A stretch of 64,000 bases of DNA from Gammaproteobacteria bacterium (GCA_029245905.1 JAQWOJ010000024.1:6114-70113); one strand, 5' to 3'; positions 10,934 through 14,860 are shown, numbered from the stretch's first letter. A program made the numbers and translations. Notes: generated from the letters alone by a model not told the origin.

Positions 10934-11359
10934 ATGGACAAATCTACTTATATTTCGATCAGATATGGTATTTTTGCTCTGATCGCGATCGGAGCAAATG
11001 TTATAACACAAGAAGCTAGCATAAGAATTTATTCTGGTAGTAGTTACACCATATTACTTTCGATCCTTAATGGCACAGTTATCGGCTTGTTAGTTAAGTA
11101 TAACCTCGATAAAAGACATATTTTCAATTTTTACCCAACTTCAACTCTTGATGACTTTAAAGTATTTTTAACATATGCAGCCACAGGAATTGTTACGACT
11201 CTAATTTTTTGGACAACTGAAATTGGTTTCCAAATAGTCTACGAAAGTAAATCTATGCGCTATACCGGGGCGATAATTGGGCTAACAATCGGATATACGG
11301 TAAAATATTTTTTAGACTATCACTTTGTGTTTTCCAAACCAAAAAATCAGGACAGATAA
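10934..11359 (+). CDS. GtrA-family small membrane protein
   Basis: 141 aa with four hydrophobic helices. The C-terminal YxxxF-rich pattern (KYFLDYHFVF) is typical of GtrA-like proteins. Its stop codon abuts the next ATG (TAAATG). Confidence 0.7.
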   Translation: MDKSTYISIRYGIFALIAIGANVITQEASIRIYSGSSYTILLSILNGTVIGLLVKYNLDKRHIFNFYPTSTLDDFKVFLTYAATGIVTTLIFWTTEIGFQIVYESKSMRYTGAIIGLTIGYTVKYFLDYHFVFSKPKNQDR

Positions 11360-12670
11360 ATGCGTCTTCAAGGTTGGGGCCGCTTCCCAGATATAGCAGC
11401 CGAGTTCATTGAGCCGGTCTCAGTGGAGCTTGTTCAAAAGTCTCTCAAAGAAAAGAATAAGGTCTTGCCTTTGATTGCCAGAGGAGCGGGTCGCAGCTAT
11501 GGAGATAGCGCGTTAGCAAGCAGAGTAATTAGCACTCGCTTTTTGGACCAATTCATAGCTTTTGACCACAAAACTCAAACCATCCGATGCGGCTCTGGCG
11601 CGACACTAGACACTGTTTTGAAATTTATTACTCCAAAAGGATATTTCCTTCCTGTTCTACCTGGGACAAAGTATGTAAGCATCGGTGGCGCTATAGCCGC
11701 TGACATTCACGGGAAAAATCACCATAAATCCGGCAGCTTTTGTTCTTATGTATCTGAACTAAGTTTAATGCTTGCAAACGGTGAAATTATCAAATGCAGT
11801 AAAGCGGAAAATCCTGATCTATTTCAAGCGACGTGCGGAGGAATGGGGCTTACGGGGATAATTATTGACGCTGTACTCTTAATGAAGAGAGTCACGAGTG
11901 TCTCGATAAGAAAACGATCCCTTATAGCAAGGGATCTTAATGAATGTATGGATATCATCGACGAAACCGAGGATAGCGAATACTCGGTCGCCTGGTTAGA
12001 CTGTCTGGCTTCGAAAGCAAGGCTGGGGCGATCAATTATTCACCTAGGCGAACACTGTAAAGACGGCCGTGCTGAGTATGAATCACGGAGAAGAATGTCG
12101 ATTCCTTTTAGTACCCCGTCAATACTACTCAATAAATGTTCGATAAGCTTATTTAATAGTGCGCTATACAATTTAAGAAAATACGGGAGTGAAATTTCAA
12201 CCGTTGGTTATGACTCTTATTTTTTCCCTCTTGACTTCATAAAGAACTGGAACCGTTTGTACGGCTCTCAAGGATTTTTGCAATATCAATTCGCGATCCC
12301 AATTACAAACTCAAAGCAAACCATCTCTGAGGTCCTAGAAAAAATTCGCGCCTCGGGTAAAGGACCATTACTGTCCGTCTTAAAAAAATTTGGTGAAGGG
12401 AATAATAACTACCTATCATTTCCATTTCGCGGATATTCACTCGCGCTGGATTTCAAGAAAGAAGTGGGTTTGTTTCCATTTTTAGCCGAACTAGATGAGA
12501 TTATTTTAGCGAACGGTGGCAGGCTATACTTAGCCAAAGACGCGAGGATGACCGAAGATGTATTTAAAAGAAGCTATTTGGATTGGGAGAAATTTTTGAA
12601 TGTTAAATCCAGAGTAGATCCAAATCATTTGTTCGCGTCACTGCAGTCAAATCGAATCGGCCTCACCTAA
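11360..12670 (+). CDS. dprE1: FAD-dependent polyprenyl-phospho-ribose 2'-oxidase, DprE1-like
   Basis: 436 aa. It is colinear, motif by motif, with my recollection of mycobacterial DprE1: GWGR, ARGAGRSYGD, VLPGTKYVSIGGAIAADIHGKNHH, GGMGLTGII, WNRLYGSQGFLQYQFAIP, LSFPFRGYSLALDF, GGRLYLAKDAR, VDPNHLFAS. Confidence 0.85.
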   Translation: MRLQGWGRFPDIAAEFIEPVSVELVQKSLKEKNKVLPLIARGAGRSYGDSALASRVISTRFLDQFIAFDHKTQTIRCGSGATLDTVLKFITPKGYFLPVLPGTKYVSIGGAIAADIHGKNHHKSGSFCSYVSELSLMLANGEIIKCSKAENPDLFQATCGGMGLTGIIIDAVLLMKRVTSVSIRKRSLIARDLNECMDIIDETEDSEYSVAWLDCLASKARLGRSIIHLGEHCKDGRAEYESRRRMSIPFSTPSILLNKCSISLFNSALYNLRKYGSEISTVGYDSYFFPLDFIKNWNRLYGSQGFLQYQFAIPITNSKQTISEVLEKIRASGKGPLLSVLKKFGEGNNNYLSFPFRGYSLALDFKKEVGLFPFLAELDEIILANGGRLYLAKDARMTEDVFKRSYLDWEKFLNVKSRVDPNHLFASLQSNRIGLT

Positions 12671-12697
12671 ATAATCCTCTCGAGCCTTGAACCCTAT

Positions 12698-13432
12698 ATG
12701 AAAATTCTTATCATTGGAGCAACATCCGCTATAGCAAAGTCCGCTGCCAGAATATATGCAGAGCGAAACTCGCAGCTATTCCTTGTGGGTCGAGACGAAA
12801 ATCGATTGGACGAAATGAAAATTGATCTGGAATTAAGGGGAGCCAGCTCGGTCCGAATTTTAGCCCTTGATATAGTCGACCATGAAGAGCACGCTATTCC
12901 GATTACTTTAGCAGCCAAATTTTTAGAAAATATAGATCTAACCTTAATTTGTCATGGATCCTTACCCAATCAAGAAAGCTGCGAGACCGATTTTAAGGAG
13001 ATAGAGAAGGCGATAAAAATAAATGCTCTAAGCACTATTTCGCTTTGCACAGAGATCTCTAAGCAATTAAAAAAACAAAAGGGAGGCACGCTTGCAGTCA
13101 TAACTTCTGTCGCTGGCGAGAGAGGAAGACAACCAAATTTCATTTATGGCGCCGCTAAGTCAATGGTTTCCACGTATCTGCAGGGTTTAAGAGGAAAGCT
13201 TCTACCATTTGGAATCCATGTAATGGATATAAAGCCAGGATTAGTAGATTCTCCTATGACTGCTGGGCTTGATAAGGGCCCCCTATGGGCGACCCCAGAG
13301 TCTATAGCCGCCCAGATAGTGGCTGGAGTACGCCGGAAGCAGCACACTGTCTACGCGCCGAGTTATTGGCGATTTATAATGTTTGCTGTCCGATCTATCC
13401 CTGAATTTATCTTCAAAAAGCTTAAGATTTGA
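12698..13432 (+). CDS. dprE2: Short-chain dehydrogenase/reductase, DprE2-like
   Basis: 244 aa. It has an SDR Rossmann start (ILIIGATSAIAKS) and a YxxxK motif (YGAAKS). Its position directly after the DprE1-like gene matches the mycobacterial pair. Confidence 0.7.
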   Translation: MKILIIGATSAIAKSAARIYAERNSQLFLVGRDENRLDEMKIDLELRGASSVRILALDIVDHEEHAIPITLAAKFLENIDLTLICHGSLPNQESCETDFKEIEKAIKINALSTISLCTEISKQLKKQKGGTLAVITSVAGERGRQPNFIYGAAKSMVSTYLQGLRGKLLPFGIHVMDIKPGLVDSPMTAGLDKGPLWATPESIAAQIVAGVRRKQHTVYAPSYWRFIMFAVRSIPEFIFKKLKI

Positions 13433-13435
13433 AAA

Positions 13436-14860
13436 TTGAATAAGCCAAAAGAAAACATCACTCTTTACGTTGACCTAGACGGTACGTTAATCAAAACAGA
13501 CCTACTGTTTGAATCATTATTAGCGTTGTTAAAGAAAAACATCTTATACGTCTTCGCCATATTATTTTGGTCGATCAAAGGAAGAGCCAATCTGAAATTT
13601 GAAGTGGCCAGAAAGACCGATCTAGCAGCTTCTGATTTACCTCTAAACACAGAGTTTTATAAATATCTGCAAGAACAAAGAGAAACCGGAAGACAGATGG
13701 TGCTTATATCTGGCTCGAATCAGAGGTCAGCAAATACGGTGGGAGAACATATAGGGCTGTTTGATGCAATATACGGTAGTGATCGATCTACAAACCTCAA
13801 AGCGAAACAGAAACTGCTAAAAATAAAAGAATTGTCCGAGGGACGCGACTTCGCATATGCAGGAAATTCAGCTGACGATATACTTGTTTGGCGCTCGGCA
13901 GCCCAAGTAATTATGGTTAATTGTCACGAGAGAATTTCAAAATTAGTCCGCGACACAGACAAACTTGAATTTGACCACCCACCAAAAGCATCAATAAAGC
14001 TACTCCAAGCGATTCGACCTCATCAGTGGTTAAAGAATTTGCTCGTATTCGTGCCGCTGATTTTATCCCATCAAATCCTTGACCTGAAATTACTAGCTTC
14101 ACTAATCATAACTTTTATAAGCTTTTCCTTGTGTGCTTCAAGCGTTTATATCTTGAATGATTTAGTAGACATCATCGATGATAGGCGTCATTGGAATAAA
14201 CACAAGCGACCTTTTGCTGCGGGAGATTTACCGTTAATCGCTGGATTTATAGCCGGGCCTCTTATGTTTATCGCAGGTGCGACTATTGCACTTACACTGC
14301 CGATAAACTTCCAGTTTATTTTCCTTCTATATTGGCTCGTTAACTTATTGTACAGTTTTTATCTCAAGCAACTTTTTATAGTCGACGTTGCTATATTATC
14401 TTTACTCTATACCCTAAGGATAATCGCTGGCGCTGAGGCGATTTATATAGAGGCAACAACTTGGCTGCTAGGGTTTTCTTTTGCCTTATTTTTTGGACTA
14501 GCTATAGTAAAAAGGGTCACTGAGTTACTCAATGTTATTTCCGACGGCGGATACGTCATCCCAGGCAGGGCCTACAAACGAAATCAATTGAGGATGTTAT
14601 CTACGGCCGGGATTTTTTCTAGCGCAATCGCAATTAGTATATTCGCGCTTTATATCTCGGCGCCAGAAACCACTGAGCTTTATGATTCGCCCTTGATACT
14701 ATGGACCATCCTTCCTCTTTTGATTTGCTTGTTCTATAGAATTTGGAAAAGCGCACTTACTTTTAGGATGAACGAAGACCCTGTCCTTTTCGCATTAACC
14801 GATCGAATCGGACAGCTAATCGTATTAGTTTGCGGCTTTTTGCTTTGGCTGGCTTCGTAA
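13436..14860 (+). CDS. Fusion of a HAD-type phosphatase domain and a UbiA-family polyprenyl-phosphate phosphoribosyltransferase domain
   Basis: 474 aa with a TTG start 3 nt after the previous stop. The HAD motifs are DLDGTL (motif I) and AGNSADD (motif IV). The multi-TM UbiA domain carries NDLVDIIDDRRHWNKHKRPFAAG (NDxxDxxxD). Confidence 0.8.
   Translation: MNKPKENITLYVDLDGTLIKTDLLFESLLALLKKNILYVFAILFWSIKGRANLKFEVARKTDLAASDLPLNTEFYKYLQEQRETGRQMVLISGSNQRSANTVGEHIGLFDAIYGSDRSTNLKAKQKLLKIKELSEGRDFAYAGNSADDILVWRSAAQVIMVNCHERISKLVRDTDKLEFDHPPKASIKLLQAIRPHQWLKNLLVFVPLILSHQILDLKLLASLIITFISFSLCASSVYILNDLVDIIDDRRHWNKHKRPFAAGDLPLIAGFIAGPLMFIAGATIALTLPINFQFIFLLYWLVNLLYSFYLKQLFIVDVAILSLLYTLRIIAGAEAIYIEATTWLLGFSFALFFGLAIVKRVTELLNVISDGGYVIPGRAYKRNQLRMLSTAGIFSSAIAISIFALYISAPETTELYDSPLILWTILPLLICLFYRIWKSALTFRMNEDPVLFALTDRIGQLIVLVCGFLLWLAS

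Follow-up and report, generated by a model that had tools for sequence, protein, structure and literature searches.

The present analysis concerns a stretch of 64,000 nucleotides from a Gammaproteobacteria bacterium (GCA_029245905.1, JAQWOJ010000024.1:6114-70113; the whole 64-kb stretch is referred to as the window), and in particular a four-gene operon that likely directs the synthesis of a lipid-linked donor of D-arabinofuranose (D-Araf). The genes of the operon are the following (aa, amino acids):

10934-11359, plus strand: gene of a GtrA-family protein, 141 aa
11360-12670, plus strand: gene of a DprE1 homologue, 436 aa
12698-13432, plus strand: gene of a DprE2 homologue, 244 aa
13436-14860, plus strand: gene of a HAD-UbiA fusion protein, 474 aa, TTG start

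The four genes are tightly packed. Read directly in the sequence, the stop codon of the GtrA-family gene is immediately followed by the start codon of the DprE1 homologue (TAA-ATG, 0 nt), a spacer of 27 nt separates the DprE1 and DprE2 homologues, and just 3 nt lie between the latter and the fusion gene (TGA-AAA-TTG). Gene ends and junctions are those given in a preliminary description of this DNA, which had also assigned the products, in order, to the GtrA-like four-helix proteins, to DprE1, to a short-chain dehydrogenase/reductase (SDR) in the DprE2 position and to the proteins with the UbiA NDxxDxxxD motif. All four assignments are borne out by the profile, structure and alignment searches reported below.

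The first product matches the NCBIfam model NF037976 (gtrA_1) with 150.2 bits against a cut-off of 50, while its score with Pfam PF04138 (22.6 bits) stays under the cut-off of 26.1. Hydropathy analysis gives four hydrophobic segments and the isoelectric point (pI) is 9.25; in other words, it is a small basic multi-helix protein with a GtrA profile match, which are the features of the family that includes Rv3789, PsPA7_6247 and GtrA. Moreover, it is 38-46% identical to its GtrA counterparts in the Ruegeria, Rhizobium and Sulfurospirillum versions of this gene set. By analogy with this family, the protein is proposed to act as a flippase or as an assembly hub for the lipid-linked sugar.

The second product aligns over residues 2-434 with the DprE1 structure 4aut of the PDB (E 9.2e-79, 268 bits), whereas the next family of flavin adenine dinucleotide (FAD) oxidases in that database reaches E 1.6e-10 and 43.6 bits. 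The same gap is seen in NCBIfam, with 400.6 bits for the DprE1 model NF053785 and 79.8 bits for the next model, so that the protein belongs with DprE1 rather than with other oxidases of the vanillyl-alcohol-oxidase type; the reverse grouping would, according to the preliminary description, have refuted its proposal. All the motifs quoted there are found in the translation, namely GWGR, RGAGRSYGD, VLPGT..SIGGAIAADIHGKNHH, GGMGLTGII, WNRLYGSQGFLQYQF, GGRLYLAKD and VDPNHLFAS. Following the residue numbering mapped by alignment to 4aut, H117, K119, Q308, Q310 and K393 are present, and they are invariant among 81 aligned homologues; the positions are those of H132, K134, Q334, Q336 and K418, which we take to be the key catalytic and substrate-site residues of Mycobacterium tuberculosis DprE1. 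At the position of the cysteine targeted by benzothiazinones (C387 in M. tuberculosis), residue 362 (window 12443-12445) is an alanine. Among the 81 homologues, which come from many phyla, this position is occupied by alanine in 71, threonine in 9 and cysteine in one. Since alanine prevails at this site, most non-mycobacterial DprE1 homologues should be insensitive to covalent nitro-benzothiazinones. The protein is about 38-40% identical to actinobacterial DprE1 sequences, and an exact-sequence look-up found no identical sequence in the records. Its sequence supports the assignment as a FAD-dependent polyprenyl-phospho-ribofuranose 2'-oxidase.

The third product has the DprE2 structure 21gq_C as its sole PDB match below 1e-15 (E 7.3e-29, residues 3-244) and keeps both SDR motifs, GATSAIA and YGAAK (YxxxK). 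It also passes the NCBIfam model PRK07102 (277.8 bits versus 267), whose name is merely 'SDR family oxidoreductase'. A role as the short-chain dehydrogenase that reduces the 2'-keto intermediate is supported by these similarities.

The fourth product is a two-domain protein whose predicted parts are distributed as follows:

13436-13960, plus strand: N-terminal HAD phosphatase domain, residues 1 to about 175
13472-13486, plus strand: HAD motif I, DLDGT (DxDxT), residues 13-17
13991-14860, plus strand: C-terminal UbiA-fold domain, residues about 186-474
14156-14182, plus strand: Asp-rich motif NDLVDIIDD, residues 241-249

As a whole, it passes the NCBIfam model PRK08238 (537 bits versus 351), which covers the HAD-UbiA architecture, and its AlphaFold model has a pLDDT of 89.5. 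The N-terminal domain scores 28 bits with Pfam PF12710 (cut-off 27), and residues D13, D15, T17 and D148 are invariant across 44 homologues. A fold search relates its model to HAD phosphatases of the phosphoserine-phosphatase type (HAD-IB) with TM scores of 0.53-0.59, while the domain alone, compared by sequence with the PDB, retrieves just insignificant matches to P-type ATPases. We propose, from the motifs, the fold and the characterised fusions described below, that it is a 5-phosphoribose phosphatase. In the UbiA domain, N241, D242, D245 and D249 are invariant in the homologue alignment. Residues 186-464 match by sequence solely the Rv3806c entries of the PDB (8j8j and 8j8k, E 5.9e-24), and 8j8j is also the best fold match (TM 0.82, root-mean-square deviation 3.5). 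Sequence and model thus support an Rv3806c-type polyprenyl-phosphate 5-phosphoribosyltransferase. The nearest relative of the fusion protein, 95% identical, is encoded on a 2.6-kb metagenome contig, and a search of a phage collection with the same protein returned one partial match, in an unannotated record of 6.6 kb.

In the source databases, homologues of the fourth product are labelled '4-hydroxybenzoate polyprenyltransferase' or 'UbiA family prenyltransferase', names that fit a different picture in which it would be an aromatic or quinone prenyltransferase, with the FAD oxidase and the SDR tailoring a small molecule and no sugar involved. We consider this very improbable. Quinone, haem and archaeal-lipid UbiA structures of the PDB give no sequence match at E<0.01, and UbiA structures other than Rv3806c (quinone-type, archaeal) are poorer fold matches, with TM scores of 0.63-0.75. 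In addition, the phosphoribosyltransferase models of NCBIfam reach E 2e-41 versus 1e-5 for haem o synthase, and no other UbiA class does better than 1e-5. Finally, a fused HAD phosphatase and the DprE1 and DprE2 partners are sensible just for a phosphoribosyl product. The protein therefore groups with the decaprenyl-phosphate phosphoribosyltransferases rather than with the quinone or haem prenyltransferases; grouping with quinone prenyltransferases was the second outcome that the preliminary description had named as refuting.

Taken together, the operon likely makes a polyprenyl-phosphate-linked beta-D-arabinofuranose donor from phosphoribosyl pyrophosphate (PRPP). In the proposed pathway, the UbiA domain would move 5-phosphoribose from PRPP onto a polyprenyl phosphate, most likely undecaprenyl phosphate, and the fused N-terminal HAD domain would then strip the 5-phosphate. 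The DprE1 homologue would oxidise the 2'-hydroxyl of the ribose with FAD, and the DprE2 homologue would reduce the keto intermediate to the arabino configuration. The GtrA-family protein may aid the transfer of the lipid-linked sugar to the periplasmic face, or it may scaffold the enzymes. As a last step, a GT-C transferase encoded elsewhere in the genome would add arabinofuranose to some envelope acceptor. As judged from sequences and models, no domain is missing on the route from PRPP and a polyprenyl phosphate to polyprenyl-P-arabinofuranose; the catalytic motifs are intact and the genes co-transcribable, while the order of the reactions, the cytoplasmic synthesis and the GtrA-aided export would follow those of characterised homologues. 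The completeness of the pathway, already claimed in the preliminary description, turns out to be better founded than it was there, because the fused HAD domain, which had been overlooked, supplies the dephosphorylation step performed by Rv3807c. The lipid-linked D-Araf donor proposed earlier is supported by the family and fold matches. As a correction, the lipid in a Gram-negative host is more likely undecaprenyl phosphate (C55) than decaprenyl phosphate (C50) (PMC11127046).

A number of observations weigh against this reading. The DprE1 homologue remains under the equivalog cut-off of NF053785 (400.6 versus 500 bits), a model that we infer to be tuned to actinobacterial sequences, the DprE2 homologue under that of NF053786 (181.2 versus 250 bits), and the fourth product scores 141.7, 129.9 and 106.6 bits with decaprenyl-phosphate phosphoribosyltransferase models whose cut-offs range from 207 to 474 (141.7 versus 207 for the first). 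By sequence, then, products 2, 3 and 4 are family members and not NCBI-defined equivalogs. The role of GtrA-like proteins is itself disputed, as the Pseudomonas homologue is dispensable in strain PAO1, and a hub function has been argued for it in place of that of a flippase (bioRxiv 10.1101/2020.04.19.049825). Furthermore, every enzymatic activity is predicted from homology, and the identity of the lipid, the stereochemistry of the sugar and the existence of an acceptor are predictions as well. The stereochemistry of the product cannot be read from a sequence, and no transferase or acceptor is visible in the 64 kb, so that use of the donor is a prediction too.

The scores below the equivalog cut-offs and the 38-40% identity to actinobacterial sequences leave room for a lipid-linked pentofuranose other than D-Araf. 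This could arise through a different stereochemistry of the DprE1 and DprE2 reactions, as a 2-keto sugar for further modification, or as polyprenyl-P-ribofuranose itself. The same entry pathway feeds ribofuranose (Ribf), xylofuranose (Xylf) and arabinofuranose (Araf), and the GT-C transferase takes more than one pentose (Kelly et al. 2024, PMC11127046). Such a product is nevertheless unlikely, given that the catalytic residues of DprE1 are invariant, that all characterised systems containing DprE1 and DprE2 yield D-Araf so far, and that Xylf systems employ an unrelated SDR epimerase, ORF13, in place of DprE1 and DprE2 (PMC11127046).

The named relatives belong to marine Gammaproteobacteria, among them Pseudohongiellaceae, Pseudohongiella and metagenome-assembled genomes (MAGs) labelled SAR86. 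Seven relatives at 51-67% identity (loci L001, L003, L005, L008, L010, L011 and L086) keep the same order: a phosphatase-family gene on the minus strand, GtrA, DprE1, DprE2, HAD-UbiA and an esterase gene on the minus strand. In none of the seven is a GT-C-like open reading frame (ORF) seen in the available flanks, which reach at most 10 kb on either side. Because the seven share this arrangement with no GT-C gene nearby, the operon appears, from these comparisons, to be an old and vertically kept locus of the lineage, and the unlinked transferase to be a trait of the whole clade.

The window itself gives the same picture. A six-frame scan of the 64 kb found just five stretches with at least four predicted membrane helices. 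Each has an assignment: the UbiA protein, a protein of the MMPL/RND type, a Na:alanine symporter, MadM and an OpuA permease. No GT-C transferase is therefore encoded in any frame of the window, as the preliminary description had noted. Moreover, 86 large multi-helix ORFs from the flanks of other loci (a set drawn from the fetched loci, almost all of them DprE1 loci of other genomes) have no homologue in the window except the MMPL proteins. In terms of the three components set out by Kelly and colleagues, a lipid-donor synthase and a candidate GtrA-family transporter are present, and the GT-C transferase is not co-encoded. The MMPL gene was considered as the exporter of the lipid and rejected, as it lies 7 kb away with unrelated genes in between:

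1485-4348, plus strand: MMPL/RND gene with sterol-sensing domain (1485-3812, 775 aa), followed by a DUF3237 gene

As a separate observation, the MMPL gene recurs in L001, L006, L010 and L086, where it precedes the operon by a few kb, and the DUF3237 gene follows it in L001; neither gene shows any sign of a link to the pathway.

The lack of a GT-C gene in the window, and within 10 kb of the operon in the seven relatives, would also fit an orphan operon with no dedicated transferase, either a remnant or a pathway whose end product is, for example, a membrane glycolipid. We regard this as quite improbable. None of the four ORFs is disrupted, and their catalytic residues do not vary among relatives diverged to 51% DprE1 identity, which argues for continued selection on the operon. 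In addition, donor genes and transferase of Pseudomonas paraeruginosa are unlinked and yet cooperate, and GT-C-like genes are present at a second locus of related genomes. A donor operon served by a transferase encoded elsewhere remains the preferred reading.

In other lineages, the module often has a large multi-helix ORF as a neighbour. In total, 41 loci extend for 5 kb or more to either side of the module, and 29 of these have such an ORF within 4 kb of it. A total of 47 multi-helix ORFs (41 from DprE1 loci, three from two plasmid loci and three from the HAD-UbiA paralogue loci L002 and L085) were scanned against Pfam, returning PMT_2 in eight, GT87 in one and the PIG-V mannosyltransferase family in one. 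The other families matched are not GT-C (acyltransferase, the O-antigen ligase Wzy_C, transporters), and roughly half of the ORFs, as counted from the table, have no Pfam match at all. Most GT-C genes of this kind carry the label 'hypothetical' (Kelly et al. 2024, PMC11127046).

Related Pseudomonadales MAGs possess a second locus with a HAD-UbiA paralogue, about 50% identical to the protein of the window, together with GT-C-like genes:

L002, 6108-11491: HAD-UbiA paralogue and GT-C-like genes
L085, 8731-11428: HAD-UbiA paralogue and GT-C-like genes
L089, 5338-9446: HAD-UbiA paralogue and GT-C-like genes
L090, 5139-14092: HAD-UbiA paralogue and GT-C-like genes

In a neighbour-joining tree without bootstrap support, the paralogue branches separately, and no DprE1 or DprE2 gene is seen in these four loci. 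It lies directly downstream of several multi-helix genes, among them those of a PMT_2 GT-C protein, of another protein of about 492 aa and of a family of 423-428 aa. The latter has 54 members with an invariant DVWDE motif, one of them called a GT39 protein by NCBI. A model of this family (pLDDT 86) has ALG12, PimE, STT3 and a GPI mannosyltransferase as its top PDB matches, at modest TM scores of 0.42-0.49. The complete chromosome OY762706.1 lacks a UbiA gene at its DprE1/DprE2 locus (L009), and both HAD-UbiA copies found in this chromosome sit beside GT-C-like genes. This distribution suggests that the DprE1/DprE2 locus and the second HAD-UbiA/GT-C locus may cooperate. A more general and speculative possibility is that, in this uncultured marine Pseudohongiellaceae-like clade, the donor operon is a fixed locus of the core genome, and that its transferase, never linked to it, comes from a GT-C family so far undescribed, with the DVWDE family of 423-428 aa as one candidate, the operon decorating an overlooked envelope glycan or protein. 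If true, this group of marine heterotrophs would gain its first reported D-Araf glycoconjugate.

D-Araf is usually associated with mycobacteria, and the preliminary description had treated it as rare outside the Corynebacteriales. That view is outdated. A pattern scan with one genome per species found a DprE1 relative encoded in at least 596 species genomes, and an exhaustive search of 1.84 billion cluster representatives returned 1768 relatives at E<=1e-30. The matches listed by the pattern scan span Gammaproteobacteria, Alphaproteobacteria, a Sulfurospirillum MAG, Bacteroidota, Acidobacteriota, Binatia, Gemmatimonadota, Bdellovibrionota, Myxococcales, Chloroflexota, an Obscuribacterales MAG and many Actinomycetota; to these can be added the gene sets on Rhizobium and Ruegeria plasmids and the systems of the literature (PMC11127046). 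In 79 loci with a DprE1 ORF, DprE2 lies within 4 kb in at least 65, a UbiA gene in at least 59, both in at least 53 and a HAD-UbiA fusion in at least 18, all of them lower bounds, as many contigs are short. Judging from these sequences, donor operons of this kind are common across bacteria, DprE1 usually having DprE2 and UbiA genes beside it, and the one described here is an additional case of a described and widespread pathway, not surprising to a specialist. A side observation is that DprE1 and DprE2 form a single fused protein in some homologues, as seen in one Flavobacteriales MAG and one Aquirufa MAG (L027 9956-12073, L028 9992-12004; proteins P0181, P0196, P0213 and others, 660-700 aa).

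The immediate surroundings of the operon are the following:

10025-10834, minus strand: inositol-monophosphatase (IMPase)-family gene, divergent from the operon
10835-10933: intergenic region between the IMPase-family gene and the operon, about 99 nt
10887-10915, plus strand: promoter-like site, a candidate only, as the consensus scan is not above chance

The likely start of the IMPase-family gene, an ATG at 10834, is placed from the translation. Scanned for promoters and terminators, the region 10600-15100 yielded no signal beyond chance, with seven promoter-like sites versus 11.2 expected. Downstream, a convergent gene for S-formylglutathione hydrolase bounds the operon, its stop codon lying at a distance of 5 nt. 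The product of the IMPase-family gene is below every NCBIfam equivalog cut-off (SuhB, 171 bits versus 332; HisN, 127 versus 275). Its position beside the operon is kept in the clade of the window (L001, L003, L005, L006, L008-L011 and L086) and not in other lineages; such a gene adjoins DprE1 in six of the 79 loci, all within that clade. As a member of the pathway it was set aside, both because of this clade-only adjacency and because the HAD domain already covers the phosphatase step. The adjacency probably reflects lineage synteny, a functional link being the lesser possibility.

The GC content of the operon is 40.9% versus 44.7% for the window. Searches for tRNA genes and Rfam families across the whole window gave no matches, and no glycan-synthesis genes are seen elsewhere in the 64 kb, the remainder of which encodes ordinary metabolic functions. 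Some further features are recorded as observations in their own right:

8136-9920, minus strand: 594-aa protein with a weak AhpC/TSA-like N-terminal region and a CxxCH haem-binding motif (CATCH)
18241-23025, plus strand: gene with a CHRD-domain counterpart in L001, then two tandem genes of about 710 aa
30225-32906, plus strand: MadM malonate/sodium symporter subunit, a preceding small membrane protein assumed to be MadL, and an adjoining AMP-binding enzyme
37136-42484, plus strand: gene with DUF1592/1588/1585/1595/1587 and a cytochrome-like domain, a DUF1552 gene, then a 548-aa protein with multiple ankyrin repeats
62831-64000, plus strand: ORF truncated at the right end of the window, lipoprotein-like, repeat-rich and beta-helix-like by eye

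The position of the 594-aa protein, which has no Pfam match over most of its length, is kept in L001, L003 and L086. The region 18241-23025 is syntenic with L001, where the counterparts of the two genes of about 710 aa are dehydrogenases dependent on pyrroloquinoline quinone with cytochrome c domains. The MadM region suggests a module for malonate uptake and activation. Lastly, the pair of DUF1592-type and DUF1552 genes is of a type known from Planctomycetes and is unusual for a gammaproteobacterium.

The operon leads to the prediction that an uncultured marine gammaproteobacterial lineage displays D-Araf on its surface, where this sugar can alter recognition by phages and antibodies, as it does on Pseudomonas pili. 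Two corrections are useful: the fused HAD domain completes the pathway, and an unlinked transferase is normal and not puzzling. Apart from the usual question as to the glycan decorated, the operon raises no long-standing one.

Among known systems, a general scheme has been put forward by Kelly et al. 2024 (PMC11127046), in which PRPP is converted to polyprenyl-P-Ribf, followed by optional epimerisation (by DprE1 and DprE2 in the case of Araf), export and transfer by a periplasmic GT-C enzyme. According to the same work, candidate systems occur in many bacteria whose glycans are unknown, and DprE1 and DprE2 homologues accompany Araf-containing glycans. The M. tuberculosis pathway (Rv3806c, Rv3807c, DprE1 Rv3790, DprE2 Rv3791 and Rv3789) has the same reaction logic as the one proposed here, with three homologous enzymes and a GtrA-family partner. 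It differs in its phosphatase, the PAP2-type Rv3807c instead of a fused HAD domain, and in its lipid, C50 versus a probable C55 in the window. Moreover, the Emb/Aft transferases of that pathway have no counterpart linked to the operon of the window.

The architecture of the fourth product is best illustrated by Citrobacter youngae O1/O2, whose ORF15, likened to it here by description, has the same order of N-terminal HAD and C-terminal UbiA domains and both the NDxxDxxxD and the DxD motifs. In vitro, the ORF15 fusion converts PRPP and polyprenyl phosphate to polyprenyl-P-ribofuranose, and mutation of a HAD aspartate leads to accumulation of the 5-phosphate intermediate (PMC11127046). A P. syringae homologue carries a phosphoribose-phosphatase domain too, described as C-terminal (PMC11127046). 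The C. youngae system departs from that of the window in its sugar, Ribf, or Xylf by way of an unrelated epimerase, in its MATE/ArnEF-like flippase, in contrast to a GtrA-family candidate, and in its GT-C enzyme (GT136), which is encoded in the same locus inside the O-antigen cluster, whereas the window has no GT-C or glycan genes nearby.

Proteobacterial gene sets for the donor are also found in symbiosis regions and on plasmids. For rhizobia, noeC, noeH and noeO have been presented as orthologous to the mycobacterial genes of donor synthesis, noeCHOP arabinosylates Nod factors, and a separate phosphatase, NoeN, has been proposed for the noeC(N)HOP sets of Azorhizobium caulinodans and Rhizobium sp. 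IRBG74 (PMC5080398). The likeness to the window, drawn by description, lies in the donor-synthesis genes; on the other hand, the rhizobial operon includes the transferase, NoeP, a secreted lipo-chitooligosaccharide serves as acceptor, and the location is in symbiosis regions. In the sets of the Rhizobium leguminosarum plasmid pR132503 and of a Ruegeria conchae plasmid, all four proteins are homologous to those of the window (DprE1 40-41%, GtrA 41-42%, fusion protein 35-37% and DprE2 31-33% identity). Their order is UbiA-GtrA-DprE1-DprE2, under generic names, and they are followed by 'hypothetical proteins' of 520-543 aa that are assumed to be transferases.

The closest characterised analogue, as judged by description, is the PsPA7_6245-6251 cluster of P. 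paraeruginosa PA7/Pa5196 with TfpW (Harvey et al. 2011, as summarised in bioRxiv 10.1101/2020.04.19.049825). It is likewise gammaproteobacterial, and its genes for the UbiA phosphoribosyltransferase, the GtrA-like protein, DprE1 and DprE2 adjoin one another; the pI of the GtrA-like protein is 9.24 versus 9.25 in the window. The same four functions are needed for D-Araf glycosylation of the type IV pilin, the acceptor in that species, including in a reconstitution in E. coli (bioRxiv 10.1101/2020.04.19.049825). Some differences are evident, as the gene order is not the same, the phosphatase (6245) is a separate Rv3807c-type gene whereas that of the window is a fused HAD domain, and the cluster lies on the genomic island RGP80 whereas the operon of the window is in conserved synteny. 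In both cases, the donor genes have no GT-C gene linked to them, TfpW being encoded at a separate locus. The missing linked transferase, noted in the preliminary description, thus has a direct precedent in Pseudomonas.

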